Below, piece by piece: positions 9,599 to 60,825 of a DNA stretch of 60,932 bases. The position numbers and the translations under genes were made by a program. Every line of letters starts with the position of its first letter. Position 1 is the stretch's first letter. The notes beneath the pieces were generated by a model. The model saw nothing but the letters and a program-made list of their open reading frames with translations, was not told the DNA's origin and did not search any database. Origin of the DNA: Neolecta irregularis DAH-3 (lineage: Eukaryota); NCBI GenBank assembly GCA_001929475.1, contig LXFE01000491.1:1-60932 (forward strand), read 5' to 3'.

Positions 9599-9734
9599 CA
9601 CCACCATGTTTGGGACAATTCTGCCATTATCACCAGGCTATGTATACTGGGTGCTGTGTTANNNNNNNNNNCACCACCATGTTTGGGACAATTCTGCCAT
9701 TATCACCAGGCTATGTATACTGGGTGCTGTGTTA
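9599..9734. repeat. 63-bp exact duplication flanking a 10-N gap
   Basis: 9599-9661 is identical to 9672-9734. Ns at 9662-9671. Confidence 0.9.
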
Positions 9735-26256: not shown

Positions 26257-26695
26257 TCAAGAATTCTGCCGTAAAATAGTATCAATATGCTGTTTTGAAT
26301 TATGGCTTGTGATCTCAAGATTCTGAAGTTGCGACGAAAGTTTCCTGATATTCTGTTGACCTGCATCAATTTGAGACTGGAGGTCTGTCCGGATGTCAGA
26401 AATATCTGCCTTGATAAACCTGGACTAGTCAGTTGTGCCAATTCAAGAATATTACATCTTTCCAACCCCTGTATAAACATTATTTTCCACATTGAGGCCA
26501 CAACATTGAGTCAGCGTAAGTTCTAATTGCCGGACTTCAGTTTCTTTTGATTGAAGCTGACTTTTGACAATGAGGATTTTCTGACGAGATGATTCTTCCT
26601 GGATTTGGATCTCCTGAAGTAGCTATAGCATTAACGAGGGCTTATGTAACAGCTTAAATTACACGCTGTAGTGCTTCCTGCGACATGTTCGACAT
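26257..26695 (-). CDS. PFD1: Prefoldin subunit 1 (3 exons)
   Basis: Spliced product MSQEALQRLLQEIQ...IVKSQLQSKETEVRQLELT...VYTGVGKMFI...LQNLEITSHNSKQHIDTILR. Not in the ORF track as such. Confidence 0.9.
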
Positions 26696-32600: not shown

Positions 32601-33142
32601 GAAGATGAGTTCAACGAATGTGTTTTGCCCGAGGTTTGTTTAACGAAAATGGGTCGTTCGATTTTTACGATATCGCCTGCGGCAATGAGGTTTCTGCCAG
32701 AGGTTGTTGCGATGGCTTCGCAGCCCAGACAGCCTAGGTATTTTCGCGTCCATGAGCAAGAGGGTGTAGCGGGCCGAGTGGGTATAGGTGAAATGCCGGG
32801 CTGGGGTTTATTGAATGCAAGTTTGGCTTGCTGGTGTCCAATTTCTTTTGGGTAATTCTTGTAAGATCCGTCGTAAAAGTAGTTTATGGCACGTGTGATA
32901 TTTCCATCCGACATTTCTTTGAGGAGTGCAATAGTGGAAGGGGAGACATGGCTGCCTAGAATTGCTGGGAGTGCTGAGAACAGGAGCGGTAATGTGTGAT
33001 CTTTGGCGGGAGGCGGAGGGATAGGAGAGAGGTTTCTGGATGTTTTGTTCTCTGGAGGCAGCTCTTCTTCTGGGCGAAAGAAGCGCAGACGTTTGGGCGG
33101 GGGAGCTGCCGGGTCTTCTGGTGGTGGTGTTTGGTTGGTCAT
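29651..33142 (-). CDS. RAD5: DNA repair helicase/E3 ligase Rad5 (HIRAN, SNF2, RING, helicase C; 7 exons)
   Basis: LRHYQKQALYWM, NPYSGELSLEFP, GGILADEMGLGKT, RIILDEAH, RING CPYC...CWHMACKPC, VVFSQFTSFL, SLKAGGVGLNL and QAIDRIHRMGQ. Confidence 0.96.
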
Positions 33143-33421
33143 GCCTTTTAGGCTGTATGACACAACAGGTATAATAAATAACACGGCCTAGATAATGGTG
33201 CTTAATATGTATCTATCCATGATCCTGGTGTGGCACATCTGCTGAATCAGTCGCAGTCCGGGAATAGTCAGGATATCAGAGCACTCCCATGCAACGGTAA
33301 GGACGAAGCCAGGGGAAGTGGTGGAGTGTGAATGATGGCGGCGGAAGCGGGTGATTCCGGAACGTATCCCAGCATTCCGTTGCAAGTCTATCCAGCTCCT
33401 TTAGTCTGTCTGCCAGTCCCC

Positions 33422-33604
33422 GTACTCTGTCACTGCCCTCCAGTTGTCGTACTCAGTTACAGTACTCAGCTGCCGTACTCCGGTACCATTACCACTCTAG
33501 AACCAGTACCAATACTGCAGTACTCTCTAACCTGTACCGATCCCTGCAATACTCTACTTAAGTACCACATATTCCCAGAACCACAGTAACCCGTCAAACA
33601 GTAC
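33422..33604. repeat. Cluster of ten GTAC cores in the divergent intergenic region
   Basis: GTAC at 33422, 33449, 33462, 33475, 33483, 33506, 33520, 33534, 33562 and 33601. Confidence 0.7.
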
Positions 33605-33667
33605 TCTACAGAAGAACTAAAGCACCCACCACATACACCTATACTCACCACTAATATCTACCCATCA

Positions 33668-33958
33668 ATGCCACTCACCCTTCCCTTCCATATCGACCTG
33701 GCCAATCTCGATCCGCCGCCGCTAGTGCAATCCACACTCACCCCCATCCTCACTCCTCCGGAACTCTCCCACGCTGCAATCCACTCTCAGTCCCTCATCG
33801 GCTCTGCAAAGCACGAGTGCAGGTCCCAACTCGTCAAAGTATCCGCTGCCTCTGAAGACCGAATCTACTCGCCCTCGCACTCCCGAGTCCCCTCATCCAC
33901 TACTCCCACCTACGTCAGCTTCCCCAGGCTCGACCCAGACCCTGCCACCGATCACTGA
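33668..33958 (+). CDS. Small Pro/Ser-rich hypothetical protein (96 aa)
   Basis: ATG-initiated ORF, C-rich like neighbouring coding DNA, ends TYVSFP..., followed by AT-rich UTR-like sequence. Confidence 0.5.
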   Translation: MPLTLPFHIDLANLDPPPLVQSTLTPILTPPELSHAAIHSQSLIGSAKHECRSQLVKVSAASEDRIYSPSHSRVPSSTTPTYVSFPRLDPDPATDH

Positions 33959-34291
33959 TCCTCAAATACCATGGGCTATATGCATTCTCTTTATTTATAT
34001 TCATCCTCTCTCTATTTATCCTTGTTCTATCCAGTAATTCCTACCAGGACTCTTTAAAAGTTTAACATTGCGCAGTTTTGTAATACTTCATAATACACGT
34101 TCTTTGTATCCATTCTTTCGTTTAACTGGTAATTTTATATCCAATGAGATGTAGCTCTTGCGCTATTATCCTTGTACTCCTGATTTCTCGTCGTGGTTTC
34201 TCTCAGTCACCCATCTTACGAGATTTAATTATAGTCGTCCCAGGTGGTTCCATAGCCGCTCTAATCTCATCCTTCAAGGCCGAGTGCAACC

Positions 34292-34596
34292 ACCACCCAA
34301 AAGTACCTCTGCATTCAACCAATCAAATTCACATCCAAAGTATCCCTACATTAACTTAATCTAACAGACAGAGTGACATCCAAAGTTCCTCTTGATAACC
34401 AAGTCTAACAGAAGGGCCACATCCGACGTCCCTCTGCATTCAATCCAATCTAATAAATAGATCATATCAAAGTACATCTACATCACTCATTCAACCAGAG
34501 TGATTCAACCAGACTGATCATATCCAAAGTACCTCTACATCCGAAAAGACTGATCACATTTAAAGTACCTCCGCATTCACCCCAATCTAATCAAAG
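34292..34596 (+). repeat. Degenerate tandem array of seven intron-like units upstream of NDUFA6
   Basis: GT starts at 34303, 34340, 34385, 34428, 34472, 34529 and 34565. Consensus approx. cacatccaaa|GTACCTCTGCATTCAACCCAATCTAA...AG. Confidence 0.85.
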
Positions 34597-35038
34597 TGGT
34601 TACAAACCCAACCCACCTTGCGGTTCGAACACGCTCAAGTTTGAATGCCCTGGACGCCCGCAAAAGAGTTTTACATCTCTACAGGAATTGGCAACGGGCT
34701 GCTCCACAAGTCACTTCCCTTTATCTCCTCGAAGTCCCCGTGAGCGCCGTCCGCGCCAAAGTACGACAAGAATTTGAAAAACATCGTTTTATCGAAGACC
34801 TCCCTGTCATCGACATGTTGATATTCAAAGGCACTGCAGAATTTCAAGTTTGTATCAAATTAACCCGAGACTCAAAAGTCTAGGAAACACTCAATTTTTG
34901 GAAACAAGAGGGACATGTAATGCAGTATTTCAAAACAGACGAGCCCATGATGAAAGGGCCGCAATGTTTGTTTCCGCAGACTGCCGTTCTGATCATTTAG
35001 CATTCCTGGGAAAGTTTTTAGAAGGAGAACCTCTGTGA
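34564..35038 (+). CDS. NDUFA6: Complex I accessory subunit NDUFA6/B14 (LYR family); ATG split by an intron
   Basis: DARKRVLHLYRNWQRAAP...SAVRAKVRQEFEKHRF..DLPVIDML...EFQ|ETLNFWKQEGHVMQYF...FLGKFLEG. No genomic ATG: A(34564) joins TG(34597-8) across a 32-nt GT-AG intron. Confidence 0.9.
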
Positions 35039-35215
35039 TTTGAGACTTGGAATACATAGGCTAGATTCGAGTACAGTATAATCACAGGCCGTAGGGGACA
35101 CCGTAAATAGAGAGCTACAACTTTGAACTGAATCATCGAAATAGGTCAAAACACACTATCCTATCTACGGAGACAACTCAAATTTTTATATGGTAAAAAC
35201 ATCCGCAAAATGTGA

Positions 35216-36204
35216 CTATACACTCTCCAAGATCTTTTCCTTGAAGTCCTTAGCACCACCACCAACCTTGGTGCCAACATCGTCAGTCCCATCACCATGT
35301 AGTTCTAAAAGTTTCTGGACTTCGAATTTGGGCGATTTGAGGATCTTGACTTTACGAACATATACCTAGGTACATCAAATGCTGTTACAAGAAGGAGATA
35401 TACGTTTTGGAGAGGAAAGATGCCATGGGTTGCTTTCTCGATTTCTCGTCCAATGACTTCGGGTACGAGTTTCTGAACGAGTTCTTTCAAGGAGCATGAA
35501 CTCGCTTCCTTTTGCATGATTTCAAACATCTTCTTTCGAATCTGTCGGATTTGAGATGATTGAGCTGATTATTAGTCCGCTGTTGGTAATAAAATGGGCA
35601 AACCGTATGTAGTCTTTTTGATTTGATTCTGCCGTCTCTTTGTAAATGCAATGACGAACAATCGAATGAGGTAGCCGTCAGTGGTCTTCACATCAGAATG
35701 AGCCTCGATCAACTAATCAATGTCAACATCTGAATTTCTCCAAGAGGAAAATACAGTCTGCCATTTTCGAACGAGCGACCGCAACTTATCAGAAGTAAAA
35801 TCCATCCCATGGAAATTCGTCAAGCAGTTTTTCCCCTGAATTTCATCGACGCGCAGTTTAACTTTTCGAAAAGCGTGTTCTTCATCCTTTTGGAGATCGG
35901 CGAGTGAAACTTCGAGGACTCGCCCTTTCAATGCATCATTTGCAATTTCTAAACATTGGTAAAAATGAATTCACGGACTGGTAGAAGGACATACTGAGAC
36001 CGGCCGTCCTGTTCACAAGGGTCTTTCCGACATTTCGAACTTCAAACATTGAGGGTGCTTTGATATCGTACCAATCCTTTCGGGCGAAGGCATCGACGGC
36101 TTTTCTCTTGGTAGGCTTCTTCCCTTTCGAGAGACGTTTATTCTTTCCGACAGCTATGAATTCCCATCAACATTATCCTCTCGAGAAATGGTAGGTTTAC
36201 CCAT
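35216..36204 (-). CDS. RPS1: 40S ribosomal protein eS1/S3a (6 exons)
   Basis: [83 protein letters not shown]. Confidence 0.98.
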
Positions 36205-40115: not shown

Positions 40116-42212
40116 TCAATTTGCGATTGTACCAGTAGTGACAAAAGATTGCGCTTTTTCCAAATTATACTTGAACGATAGCCAAAGCTAGGTCAGTCAG
40201 CAAGAGCCAAAACTGGGCTAGACACACTCTTGAAGTAGAACCGTTTCTATCCATCTCAACAACAATGATATCAACCGTCTCCGTCCGTTTCTTATCATTC
40301 ATCGAAGCAAATTCGCGGCTTTTTCGGGGCGCCATGTATCCCATAGTAGTCAAGGCAGACTCGATTTCTGACCGAAGATTGAATCTCCAATGATAGAATT
40401 TATGATACCACCTCGCACGAGCCAATATCTCAGTATGAGTAACAAAACTTGTATACCATGACAAAAGCGACCGAGAAACCAGGCTCGATCGTCATCCACG
40501 ATACTGCTGGTTGAATCAGAATCAGAATCACTGGAACTCGTGGGCATTAATGTATCTCGATGATACCTAGGACCCTGGAACCGAACAATCCAAGTTGCAT
40601 TGCTAACGATTAGGGTTGAAAGTGTGGATGATACCGATTGGTGATATTACAAGCGTCGCAACGCATCCCTGTATTGCTCTCTGCATCACTGAAAATAGGT
40701 CTCGCTTTGATCGCCGAAGAAAAATTATGTTTCCAAGCGGTTGAAATAAGAACGGAATCACGAATAGAATCAACTTTCTTCTCAAATGCCTTTAACGCCA
40801 ACTGAAAGTAGTTTTGGTCCAAATTCATTGCTGGGTTAAGTAAACGATGAACTTCATATTGAACGAGCACTTTGAAATGATGCGAGAGCTTTTGGTGAGA
40901 TTGCATTTGAAATTCAACAGGCATCTGGGTACTATCGAAATCTTCGTCCTCAGATTCGACTATAAAGTTTTCAGAGTTTACGGATCCCGAAGATTTTTCG
41001 CTTGTGCTATCATACAGCGGTTGACTATCTGTAGAAGAATCAACGTCATAGTTGTCTGTGTTGGAAGGCGCGATTCCTTTGCGCTCTAATAGTTAGATCC
41101 AAATTATGACAAAAGCGCTTCACTATTGCGAAGAGTGGCAAGTAATCTCTGTCGATTTGAAAGGGCCTTATTTCGACTGCTCTCGTCCCGTGTGCGTTTC
41201 GCCAACACTTCTATAATGTTAATAGAAATACGGAAAGAGTAATACTCCCGGCATCTAGCATCTTGATTTCATCTTCCAATTCTTCTACTTGCGATCCTGT
41301 ATCCTGTTCATCTGTACTCAGGATGCGATTTTTCTGACATGTTCTCAAAAGTCGAGGTTTCTTTGACGATGAGACTGCGCCTTCAATGTGGCATTTCCTC
41401 TCTGCAAGTTTTGGTTGCTCCATTTTAATTTCTTTGAAACTCTTCCTGTCCTCATCGGCGTCATGATTATCATATTTATTTAAGAGTAGAGAACGAGATC
41501 CCAGTGGAGGGGGTTCGGAGATATCTGCATCAGGGCTAACCGAGAAAAGAGAATCGACTTGGTCTGAAGATAGCTTCCCAGTGGTAAATTTCGAAGGATT
41601 TTCTAGAACCGATCCTTCAGGCGGTGTCCAGGCATTTTGCCTTGGTTTATCTGGGAATATTTCAGTGGCCACATCCAACCTTGTTTGTTTCAACTTGAAT
41701 TTTTTGTCGACACGAGTATCCAGAGGCTTATGATGTTTTGTGGGTCCAGATATTTCGGATGCAGCGCAATTTCCTGGCGCCTGGTCTCTAACGACAGATG
41801 TTCGTTTGCACTTCTTGACTCTTGCTGGGTGTCCAAGCCCATTGTTAGATAGACGAGTCTGTCTCGGACCAGAGGATTTTTCTTTTACTCTATTTGACTT
41901 CTGTTTTGGAGTTTTCGTCATCCCTTGAACGGGACCGCCTCTATTTTGTGGTGTATTTTCTAATTCTTTACTCGGCGGTAGCTGGGTGGATACAATATTC
42001 GATGGAGATTTCGATAGCTTTCGCTTGCGCTGAATAACTTGTACAAGTTCTCCAGGTCTGACAGGAGACACGGCTTGATTCACCTTTAGCGGATCCTCGC
42101 CATCATGAATAGTTGCATAAATAAGAGGACGTTCAGTGATATGACCCTTGGGTTCTTTTGTTTTCTTTTCTGGAGTATTCTGTCCTCTATCCTGTGATTT
42201 TCGGGCAGGCAT
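40116..42212 (-). CDS. DUF4211/CCDC82-like protein (6 exons)
   Basis: Disordered basic N-half. C-terminal STAWKHNF..AIKARP, CDACN and WFLGRFCHARARWYHKFYHW. One intron needs a non-AG acceptor. Confidence 0.8.
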
Positions 42213-54038: not shown

Positions 54039-55799
54039 TCAGACTAGGGTTATTAGCTTTGTACCTGACATCTCATACTCGTTGCCTTGGCCACCAATCA
54101 TTTGTTGAGGGAATGATGTTGGGATGGCATTCTGCATCATGCAAGCCGGAGTGTTGAATGGTTGGTTGTGATATTGTTCCCACATAGTATCTGGTCTTCG
54201 TGTGGGCAATGTATTAAAGTTGACTCCAATCAACTGTGAATGGTCCAAATCATAAGTCTGGGTCAATGGCATTTGAGGAGGGTTTATGATGCCTGAAGAA
54301 CCGTGATTGACATACCCTCCACCAAATATAGGAGCTCCATAATTTGCATCCAATGATGTTGCGACAAACTCTGAACCAACCATAGAAGCAGGTGTACCAG
54401 CAACTGGTATCGAGAAATTTGCCACTGTATCCTCCTCAAAACCGCTTGTGTTGCAGCGGAGAGGGTGTCCGAGTCCGCTGTTTGCCCCAGCGAAGAGCGG
54501 ATGATGAGGTACAGTTCCTTCAGGAAGGATCGGTAAAGACTGGCTTCGGTGTCGTCGAATGTACTGAAATGGATGGTTGAATCCCGAATGAAGGTCTAAA
54601 TTGGAAATTTGCGACATAGTCGAATGAAGCGAATGACCAGATGCCGATCCTGCGATACCTACACCGGCTTGAGACTCAATATCACCACTTGAATCATAGA
54701 ATGAATCATGAGCCTCCGCCACTGTATCTTTGTAGTGAATTAGGTTGGCGATACTAGGGTTGGCAGTGGTGAGTTCTTGAAATTGTTGTTTGAGTATCTT
54801 TAAAGGACCAATGATGACATGCTGTAGAACAGTTGATCCCTGCAAGTCTTCTGTGAAGTCTTCACATCGCTGCCACCCGCCGGCAGATGGAACTTCCATG
54901 TAGAAGATTGGGGGTCCAGATAATGTCAAAGTAGCTTTTCCAAACCGCTTCTGAATCTTATTGGTACTGTATGGTATTTGTTGAATTGGTTGGAGAATAA
55001 TTGCAGATATTGCTGCGAGAGGGAACTCTAGTTTGTAGCCCGTAGAATTGCTGTTGATATAATATGTGAAACAATAGTCGCTTACGGAGAAGTAACAGAC
55101 GAGATCCATCGATGTTTGAGCAGCTCGATGCCATGTTCCAATTGTCAGTGTCTTGCAGGCAAGTTGGGTGATGACAACCCGAGAGTTTGCAGCAGCAAGA
55201 GGAACCAAGTAAGATGGAGGTCTCTGTATCATCGAGCCGGACATTGGATGGTAAGTATGGGATCTCATCATAGATGGTCTCCCATCCATTCCAAGATCCG
55301 AGTCTGTGAATCCAGACATGGGGGATTCGGTTGATGCATCTGGATCTTCAGCACCACGACGCTGCAAGAGCTTCATTTTGGCACGACTAAAGCTGGTTAG
55401 TCATCCAAGATTAAGCTCGCACCGATTCTGAAACCAGATTTGGACGCTTCTCTCTGTCATTTGGATTGTCTGAGCAAGCGCCTGGCGAACTTTTGAGTTG
55501 GGAGTAGGATTGACAGCAAAGGTTTCTTCTAGAACCGAAAGTTGTTCTAAAGTAGCACGTTGACGCTTCTTGTTGACTTGCTGCTGTGTCAGACCAGAGG
55601 ATCGATATCGACTTGGCGAAGACTTTCGACTGCCAACAGAAGGGGGCGAGGGCGTAGGGTTTGCAGGAGATGGAGAATCATTGCTAGTATAATCTCCATG
55701 AGTCATATACGCTTCCGAAATTGACCCCGTGGGATAAATTGAGCTTGAATACATGGTAAAATCCAAAATGCCCTGATCTGCGCCGCACTTTTGTGACAT
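54039..55799 (-). CDS. Homeodomain transcription factor, Phx1/Pah1/Hoy1-like (2 exons)
   Basis: KKRQRATLEQLSVLEETF...MTERSVQIWFQNR|RAKMK, then CKTLTIGTWHR...DLVCYFS...GYKLEFPL..I...WQRCEDFTE. Confidence 0.9.
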
Positions 55800-56888
55800 T
55801 AATAGTTGTGAACGGAATAGCGAATTCGCCGGATTCGTGACCTGCAGAGGAATGAGATGACACGTAAAGAAGTTGACGGTACCAGACGTAGCTCCAGACT
55901 TGTCGTTAAAAGCAAGTAAACCCAACTTCCTGAGGTTATAAAGAACGTAGAGAATTGCGAAATGAACCCCTGTAGCCTGACAGGAGATGGATTTAAGAGA
56001 CAAACCAGAGCTTGAGCAGCTCTCGACAGGGGCCGGTCGGATAATAAGAAGACAGAGAGCCCAAATGCTGGATCTGAGACCTTTAGGCTTTACACAAAGA
56101 AAGGCTGACTCTGGCTGCTGAGACCGTGCCAAGAACCGAAAGGAAGCCGCCGCAAACTGGGTCTGGCCGAGCAGGGGCGGGGACAAAGGCGGCAAGCCAA
56201 GATGCGAAACCCCAAGGGAAGAAAGAGAAATGAAGGACTGGACCTGCCTGTGCAGGAGAATCGTAAAGCGAAAACGATAATGTTGGATAGGAAAAGTTGG
56301 GTTTATGCTTGGTTTTAACCGCACCCCCAGGGAACACAATCGCCATCCAACCGGGCATTTTAGAGTTAGTCTATTGCGCGAGCTAGAGATCCTGAGATTG
56401 TCGAGGCGATCGTTTTTATTTATTTATCCGGGCAGGGCTATAAACGGCCGCATAGACAAGTGCCCATAGCAGGCGCGAATAGTATTTCCGTCACAGTGCT
56501 GTTATCTGTATTACGGCGGAAAAGACTGCAGTTGCAGGCAGACACAGCATTGAAGCGTGTTTGAGGCACCATATGCGGGCAAAAGCCGCATGTTTCACTA
56601 ATGTTTTAGGAGGTTGCCAAAAGTTGCCTTAAAGAGAGATCAGTGACATCGATGGCTGGTCGTATGGGCGCTGCTTAGCAAGAAATTATCTCGCCACCCC
56701 TGAGGTGGGTTCGACAGTATTCCCATTTGTACAAAACACCAGATGGGTTACCGGCTGGGACTATACACAGCCGGCCTCTATATAGAAAGACAAACTCCTA
56801 AAAAGAAACTCCGAGTCAGTTGACCACCCATTAAAGACCGCTCTCGAGTCGAGATCGCTGATCGATTGTTGAAACTTGACATGCCAGA

Positions 56889-60815: not shown

Positions 60816-60825
60816 NNNNNNNNNN

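Follow-up and report, generated by a model that had tools for sequence, protein, structure and literature searches.

An NDUFA6 gene without a genomic ATG behind a tandem array

The 60,932-nt contig LXFE01000491.1 of Neolecta irregularis DAH-3 (assembly GCA_001929475.1), here analysed as a whole and referred to as the window, carries on its forward (+) strand a short gene of three coding exons, the first of which directly follows an array of intron-like tandem repeats (Table 1). This first exon encodes a Complex1_LYR domain (PF05347; E = 2.4e-08, 34.2 bits against a cut-off of 24.8), and its best named matches are designated 'NADH-ubiquinone oxidoreductase 14.8 kDa subunit'. All four homologues found are NDUFA6-like (56-88% identity), with the N-termini MVTNPT, MAINAT, MVINPT and, in the one-residue-shorter protein P0003, MINPT. 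We identify the predicted product as the LYR-family complex I subunit NDUFA6 (LYRM6; 14.8 kDa) of N. irregularis. Two further exons were recovered by tblastn across introns of 36 and 35 nt, without any frameshift or stop.

The frame of this gene, read from position 34596 (VVTNPTHLAVRTRSS...), begins with GTG, and it is to this codon (34596-34598) that tblastn aligns Met1 of the homologues P0002 and P0005. Upstream, the frame is closed by a TGA at 34551-34553, with no in-frame ATG between this stop and the GTG, and the next ATG downstream, at 34645, is out of frame. Our data thus agree with the first-pass annotation of the window, which had described a coding exon starting with TG GTT, an A in front of six of the seven array donors and the lack of an ATG in the unspliced sequence.

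No Neolecta NDUFA6 protein of 46-147 aa is present among the database matches for the NDUFA6 exon. The gene (34596-35038) may be absent from public annotation or mis-modelled there, possibly for want of a genomic ATG. A complex I subunit missed in this way could be misread as a gene loss, which makes the case relevant to annotation.

Table 1. Features of the NDUFA6 locus and the adjoining array in the window. Scores are those of the intron model described in the text.
Feature	Position	Strand	Description
ATG-free tract	34152-34644	+	From the ATG at 34149 to that at 34645; 496 nt from one start to the next
Unit 1	34303-34339	+	GTACCT head, CCAAT, no CTNAY; best candidate intron 34303-34340 scores 11.2 (poor)
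Unit 2	34340-34384	+	GTATCC...CTAAC; AG ends at 34367, 34371 and 34373; candidate intron 34340-34371, 32 nt, score 19.0
Unit 3	34385-34427	+	GTTCCT...CTAAC; candidate intron 34385-34414, 30 nt, score 13.75
Unit 4	34428-34471	+	GTCCCT, C before donor, CCAAT CTAAT...TAG; candidate intron 34428-34460, 33 nt, score 15.05
Unit 5	34472-34528	+	Longest unit; internal 14-nt duplication 34485-34518; CTCAT and CTGAT, no CTAAY
Unit 5, best candidate intron	34472-34512	+	41 nt, score 14.8
Unit 6	34529-34564	+	GTACCT...CTGAT...TTTAAA; part of exon 1 if the transcript begins upstream of unit 6
Unit 6, candidate intron	34529-34565	+	37 nt, score 19.1; takes the donor G of unit 7 and would block ATG formation
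Last base of predicted exon 1	34564	+	A; would be the first base of the start codon once spliced
Unit 7	34565-34596	+	Predicted 32-nt intron: GTACCT, CTAAT at 34587, first AG 34595-34596; score 16.84
Coding exon	34597-34847	+	TG + 83 codons, (M)VTNPTHLAV...TAEFQ; Complex1_LYR domain
Intron	34848-34883	+	36 nt, GTTTGT...CTCAA...TAG
Coding exon	34884-34965	+	ETLNFWKQEGHVMQYFKTDEPMMKGPQ + first base of Ser codon
Intron	34966-35000	+	35 nt, GTTTGT...CTGAT...TAG
Last coding exon	35001-35038	+	(S)FLGKFLEGEPL; stop TGA 35036-35038

The array consists of degenerate copies of one sequence

Seven degenerate direct-repeat units fill positions 34303-34596 (+) and adjoin the LYR/NDUFA6 coding exon, as had been proposed in the first-pass annotation, which listed seven related units beginning with GT and spaced 36-57 nt apart. 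Their start-to-start spacings are 37, 45, 43, 44, 57 and 36 nt, and the last unit measures 32 nt. Each of them opens with GT (three times as GTACC, otherwise as GTATC, GTTCC, GTCCC or GTACA), and the base in front of the donor is an A in all cases except unit 4, where it is a C. The coordinates also bear out the earlier statement that units 2, 3, 4 and 7 contain CTAAC or CTAAT followed by AG, giving candidate introns of 30-33 nt with spacers of 11-13 nt. Units 5 and 6 show CTGAT in place of CTAAY, together with AAAG, and unit 1 is devoid of a CTNAY motif. As a whole, the array is poor in G (31 G in the 301 nt from 34296 to 34596) and contains no ATG.

The repetitive nature of this region is evident from several measures. 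A repeat search returned eight direct-repeat families in 34150-34700, among them a 30-mer present four times at 70-100% identity and a 51-nt pair at 73% identity. Alignment of the units with MAFFT gave a mean column identity of 56%. The 19-nt unit head has four matches in the window (≤3 mismatches), all of them within the array and none elsewhere in the 61 kb, compared with 0.05 expected, and at least four were reached in none of 100 shuffles. By local 8-mer repeat count, only one other 300-nt stretch in the window is more repetitive than the array. Tandem Repeats Finder reported only a 14-nt sub-repeat in unit 5 (34485-34518); it is blind to the array as a whole because the units are only about 56% identical per column.

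A 15-nt unit head, AAAGTACCTCTNCAT (positions -3 to +12, with N at +9), is kept in five to seven of the seven units at each specified position (N column, three of seven). The GT, present in all units, is no better conserved than the positions adjoining it, and this even conservation therefore gives no sign of selection on splice signals. Moreover, no homology links the array and the coding exon: aligned to the array, the exon's first 24 nt score 10 against a shuffle mean of 13.2, a value equalled or exceeded by 99.75% of shuffles. Since the spacers do not resemble the start of the coding exon, repeat units composed of an intron plus an exon are not demonstrated. The array matches none of the RNA families in a search of 33000-35500, and its predicted structure is not unusual (z = -0.62).

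The last array unit is a predicted start-codon intron

We collected GT..AG segments that join two open, coding-like frames. This set comprises 27 predicted introns in the window, curated by eye, and served to build a log-odds score that combines the donor, the branch point and its distance, the acceptor and the length. The 27 introns measure 30-46 nt and have degenerate donors (GTA in 18 cases, GTAC in two). In 24 of them, a branch motif of the CTNAY type or of the related form YTNAY precedes the 3' end by 3-11 nt; the acceptor is TAG in 16 of the 27, CAG in eight and AAG in three. The 32-nt intron at 40603-40634, cited earlier as a precedent for such small sizes, was recovered by the same scan on the reverse (-) strand with a score of 22.05. 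Short introns are in line with the genome report for N. irregularis, whose Supplementary Table 1 gives 4.3 introns per gene and an average intron of 42 bp (PMC5309816). The same report describes a genome of 14.5 Mb (N50 16 kb, 44% GC, 199-fold coverage) and the sequencing of fruiting-body RNA (PMC5309816). A pair of abutting candidate introns at 26385-26455 (-) was considered as a further instance of tandem copies and rejected, as the two are not copies of each other.

Unit 7 conforms to this local pattern. It reads GTACCT...CTAAT CAAAG over 32 nt, with an A in front of it and TG behind; its branch motif, CTAAT at 34587, lies six bases before the first AG downstream, which ends at 34596 and is the only one. 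Joining A34564 to TG34597 gives ATG GTT ACA, hence MVTNPT, in frame with the LYR open reading frame (ORF) and matching the N-termini of the homologues. Unit 7 thus shows the traits of local U2-type introns (GT/AG borders, a CTNAY motif near the 3' end, a suitable length), and its removal would restore a start codon. With 16.84, it scores higher than eight of the 27 introns when each is left out in turn (from 7.2 to 25.7, with a median of 18.3). Among 30,288 GT..AG segments of 24-100 nt in the window, 119 score at least as high, 24 of which are training introns. A score of at least 13.75 is reached by 378 candidates; 14 of these rebuild an ATG, and the one at NDUFA6 opens the longest ORF (94 codons).

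From these results, we infer that the NDUFA6 AUG is made only by splicing out 34565-34596, a conclusion that we hold to be highly probable because a start at GUG alone would be very unusual and the geometry of the site is exact. Exon 1 would end with A34564 and the next exon start with TG34597, such that the AUG would exist in the spliced mRNA only. In unspliced RNA, no AUG lies in frame, the first one (34645) belonging to another frame, and production of the protein would therefore depend on the unit 7 splice. The splice-made start codon proposed in the first-pass annotation is thus favoured by its fit to the local introns and by the alignment of MVTNPT with Met1 of the homologues, while its standing is that of an inference. 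In a separate case in the window, the RPS1 gene has a 47-nt intron right behind ATGG (36152-36202, - strand; phase 1, codon 2; ATGG/gtaaacc...ttcatag/CT, with slashes marking the splice sites), showing that introns at the very start of coding regions do occur in this genome.

As to the array as a whole, the account that we consider more likely than not is that this start-codon intron is the last array unit and that the units upstream of it belong to the promoter or leader and are not obligatory micro-exons. Within a repeat that takes up the promoter-proximal and 5'-leader region, unit 7 would be the 3'-most member, and a shortened one. The intron-like look of the units stems from their being copies of one sequence and is no proof that each is spliced. 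Those upstream are most likely promoter or leader sequence, at most partly transcribed, and may occasionally provide alternative A/GT donors or decoy sites rather than form a compulsory chain of micro-exons. Removal of the candidate intron in unit 6 (34529-34565) would use up the donor G of unit 7 and leave an mRNA without ATG, an overlap that counts against the routine splicing of all units.

Several observations weigh against a spliced start codon or against the role assigned to the upstream units. The AAG acceptor of unit 7 belongs to a minority class (three of the 27 local introns), its 3'-site score is -0.09 and its donor, GTACCT, lacks a G at +5. Splicing would put a T at -3 of the AUG; the genomic GTG, by comparison, lies in a good context, with A at -3 and G at +4. 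The initial M of P0002 (88% identity) may be a GTG printed as M by a bacterial-type gene caller; since such a caller would print M for GTG as well, the Met start of this homologue does not discriminate between the two codons. With about one candidate of unit 7's score per 1.2 kb of single strand, the score has low specificity, and the scoring is partly circular because the intron set was picked by its own ORF-joining and branch rules and curated by eye. Finally, the 496-nt ATG-free tract hints that more of the array is transcribed than assumed here.

The predicted intron is absent from inspected relatives

A metagenome scan yielded only relatives at 30-59% identity; 12 related loci were fetched and six inspected (L001, L003, L004, L007, L008 and L011). 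In each of the six, all of them distant at 47-59% protein identity, the ATG is intact and GTT/GTC ATC AAC CC or ATC AAT CC comes next; their introns lie elsewhere or are missing. The search for orthologues with an intron between A and TG, suggested in the first-pass annotation as a check, thus found none among these loci, and their intact start codons mark the predicted start-codon intron as lineage-specific, confined to the Neolecta side.

At the junction, relatives read ...CAAG ATG G, compared to ...CAAAG TG G in Neolecta. It is tempting to speculate on two routes by which this state could have arisen. A 5'-untranslated region (UTR) intron ending in ...CAAAG just before the ATG may have lost one A; alternatively, an A-to-G change may have abolished the ATG while giving rise to the AG acceptor. 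By either route, the A at the end of exon 1 would restore the start codon. The predicted intron is itself a member of the local tandem repeat family, and at the sequence level the link between duplication and intron is real.

The ATG-free tract and candidate promoter signals

The ATG-free gap that spans the array is the longest on the + strand of the window and second overall to one of 547 nt on the - strand (55799-56346). Between 34153 and 34596, no ATG is found where 4.5 are expected, a state seen in 0.4% of dinucleotide shuffles; the significance of this figure is much weaker than it looks because the units copy one ATG-free sequence. The tract weakly suggests a long leader. CCAAT occurs four times on the + strand of 34100-34600 (at 34141, 34319, 34445 and 34582) and not at all on the - strand. 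In fungi, CCAAT-binding complexes regulate respiratory genes. The positions of these candidate boxes would fit a promoter role for the upstream units.

Other signals proved uninformative. A HomolD-like box (CAGTCACC) at 34204 was discarded as a marker of the transcription start, its matches being at chance level (52 versus 47 expected), and CCAAAGTA or AGTACYC gave few matches, mostly within genes or the array, and thus nothing usable as promoter motifs. An upstream exon with its own ATG was also rejected: the 71-codon ORF starting at 34144 meets the unit 1 donor in phase 0, while the acceptor at 34596 needs phase 1, and the homologues lack an N-terminal extension. This ORF (34144-34359, MRCSSCAIILVLL...), which enters units 1 and 2 and marks the upstream edge of the ATG-free tract, is probably spurious. 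We also dropped the idea that the 1612-nt contig encoding P0002 is a cDNA merged with the convergent RPS1 gene, which would have set limits to the length of the leader, as no such RPS1 match is present among the 120 matches listed.

Alternative readings of the locus

The best-surviving competitor of the start-codon intron with a passive upstream array holds that transcription starts upstream of the array and that several or all units are removed as 30-37-nt introns, with the choice of splice sites gating translation. The mRNA would then retain micro-exons of 11-13 nt or be joined through alternative A/GT donors, and thus contain an AUG, no AUG or an upstream ORF (uORF). The scores of units 2 and 6 (19.0 and 19.1) are indeed those of typical introns and exceed about 20 of the 27 leave-one-out values, and units 4, 5 and 3 reach the lower range of local introns (15.05, 14.8 and 13.75). 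The GT is retained in seven of seven units and the preceding A in six, short uORFs could arise from the AG/TG sites of units 2 and 5, and a 496-nt ATG-free gap and an unstructured leader (see above) would suit this model. However, the score is of low specificity, the ATG-free statistic is inflated by the common origin of the units, and unit 1, without CTNAY, scores only 11.2. Conservation extends over the entire 15-nt head, with nothing special about the GT, and the best intron of unit 6 ends on the donor G of unit 7, thereby destroying the only route to an AUG. We regard serial mini-introns as unlikely. As a working set, six paralogous A/GT donors could each build an AUG with the last acceptor, a notion to which we attach little weight; that the AG/TG sites of units 2 and 5 and the AAAG acceptor of unit 6 give rise to uORF-bearing or AUG-less mRNAs appears just as doubtful. 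Of the multiplication and gating of introns envisaged in the first-pass annotation, it stands that unit 7 fits an intron and belongs to a tandem family; the rest may hold, but the spacers, which lack exon homology, and the evenly conserved head lend it no support. There is likewise no indication of recursive splicing or of a stwintron: as read, the upstream exons end in ...AAA and, behind the AAAG acceptor, the next unit starts with TACC, so that no GT is regenerated.

Less probable still is a locus without splicing, in which translation starts at the genomic GUG (34596) and the array acts as promoter or leader, perhaps through its CCAAT boxes. Such a start would yield the same protein, MVTNPT, from a strong context, and it could account for the M of P0002 if this stems from a GTG call; the strand bias of CCAAT also agrees with it. 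On the other hand, the equivalent codon is ATG in all six inspected relatives. As the sole initiation codon of conserved nuclear genes, GUG is very rare in fungi, and most of the known non-AUG starts lengthen the protein at its N-terminus. A GUG start would, in addition, require the coincidence of a well-formed 32-nt intron ending on that very G with an A before it, at a site that scores as only about 0.4% of GT..AG segments do and that is one of 14 among 378 candidates to rebuild an ATG.

It is very improbable that the locus is defective or mis-assembled, be it through mutation of the start codon in a gene under decay or through a wrong base at 34596: the assembly is a draft (N50 16 kb; PMC5309816) with a duplicated stretch flanking a 10-N gap at 9600-9730, and a Neolecta NDUFA6 protein is missing from the database matches, but the three coding exons are intact, the first is 88% identical to an expressed-looking relative, coverage is given as 199-fold (PMC5309816), the array is not near a gap and gene callers that require an ATG would explain the missing annotation equally well.

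Other features of the window

Downstream of NDUFA6 and convergent with it lies RPS1, an exon of which matches a protein named 40S ribosomal protein S1 at 100%. The public 534-aa '40S ribosomal protein S1' (P0129; 35216-37350, - strand) fuses a lysine-rich upstream ORF to RPS1, with the RPS1 5' leader read in frame, and probably represents two genes merged in annotation. Between the two convergent genes, at 35118-35203 (-), the RNA family search of 33000-35500 gave its only match, a weak box C/D small nucleolar RNA (snoRNA)-like one (sno_ncR3); its 22 bits (E = 0.13) fall far short of the gathering score of 88, and it probably arose by chance.

Upstream, between a Rad5-like gene and the array, GTACTC/GTACC motifs occur about ten times in the G-poor segment 33400-33620, alongside two tandem repeats of small extent (33449-33480, period 13; 33494-33556, period 28). 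The ORFs 33332-33589 and 33668-33958 in this area are of doubtful coding value, and the stop-to-stop frame 33590-33955, which contains the second, has no Pfam match. Farther away, a sequence of about 62 nt (caccaccatgtttggg...gtgctgtgtta) is identical on both sides of a run of 10 N (9662-9671). This duplication at 9600-9730 ranks above the array and first in the window for local repeats; it represents contig ends that overlap but were left unmerged, and is thus an assembly artefact. Further 10-N runs lie at 198-207 and 60816-60825.

Relation to known systems and implications

Introns that disrupt start codons are described as relatively rare (PMC1626468). For Yarrowia, 42 introns whose 5' splice site comes right behind the A, T or G of the start codon are reported, along with many 5'-UTR introns that end just before the ATG (PMC13309789). 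The predicted NDUFA6 intron shares their A/GT...AG/TG geometry, with an AUG built by splicing at the extreme 5' end of a short conserved gene. It differs in that it is a tandem-repeat unit, is absent from all six inspected relatives and is known here from sequence. Start-codon introns as such are thus known, if rare; what is unusual is the tandem-repeat origin of the one predicted in NDUFA6. Within the literature searched, we found no tandem array of intron-like units that ends in a start-codon intron.

Several other systems bear a partial resemblance to this locus. Intron gain by tandem duplication, according to the Rogers model and as described for potato RdRp (PMC4974935), also involves local duplication and a lineage-specific intron, and the short direct repeat AAAGT at both borders of unit 7 adds to the likeness. 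In that model, however, the intron copies adjoining exon sequence with AGGT in it and there are two copies, whereas here there are seven, no exon homology is seen and the border reads AAAG/T instead of AG/GT. Thus, absence of the intron from relatives is seen at this locus (six of six loci, all distant), and an exon copy is not. Intronization and proto-introns in 5' UTRs, as portrayed in PMC6726248 and PMC3629103, are similar in that a leader with chance or inherited splice signals turns into an intron and that one alteration close to the start codon may have been enough to fix it, with the difference that the candidate here belongs to a repeat family. The snoRNA host arrays SNORD115/116 of SNHG14 likewise have many tandem intron units in one transcript, but those introns are described as long, each with a snoRNA (PMC11608373), as opposed to 32-57 nt, no RNA family and a protein-coding host in Neolecta. 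Fungal introner-like elements share the multiplication of near-identical introns, yet they are depicted as structured, of greater length than regular introns and dispersed, with copies in the hundreds (PMC4457414, PMC3609843); the array unit, by contrast, is confined to the array within the 61-kb window and unstructured.

Clear recent examples of spliceosomal intron birth are scarce, and at this locus the predicted start-codon intron is visibly one copy of a tandem repeat. It provides a concrete case in which an obligatory intron could result from the expansion of a leader repeat plus a single minor change at the ATG. If the upstream units were spliced as well, the locus would represent an unusual form of splicing-dependent control of translation, and if the working set of mini-introns applied, the choice of splice sites would set the amount of protein. 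The array would then capture introns in the course of their multiplication by local tandem duplication, in an ascomycete that ranks among those with the most and the shortest introns.

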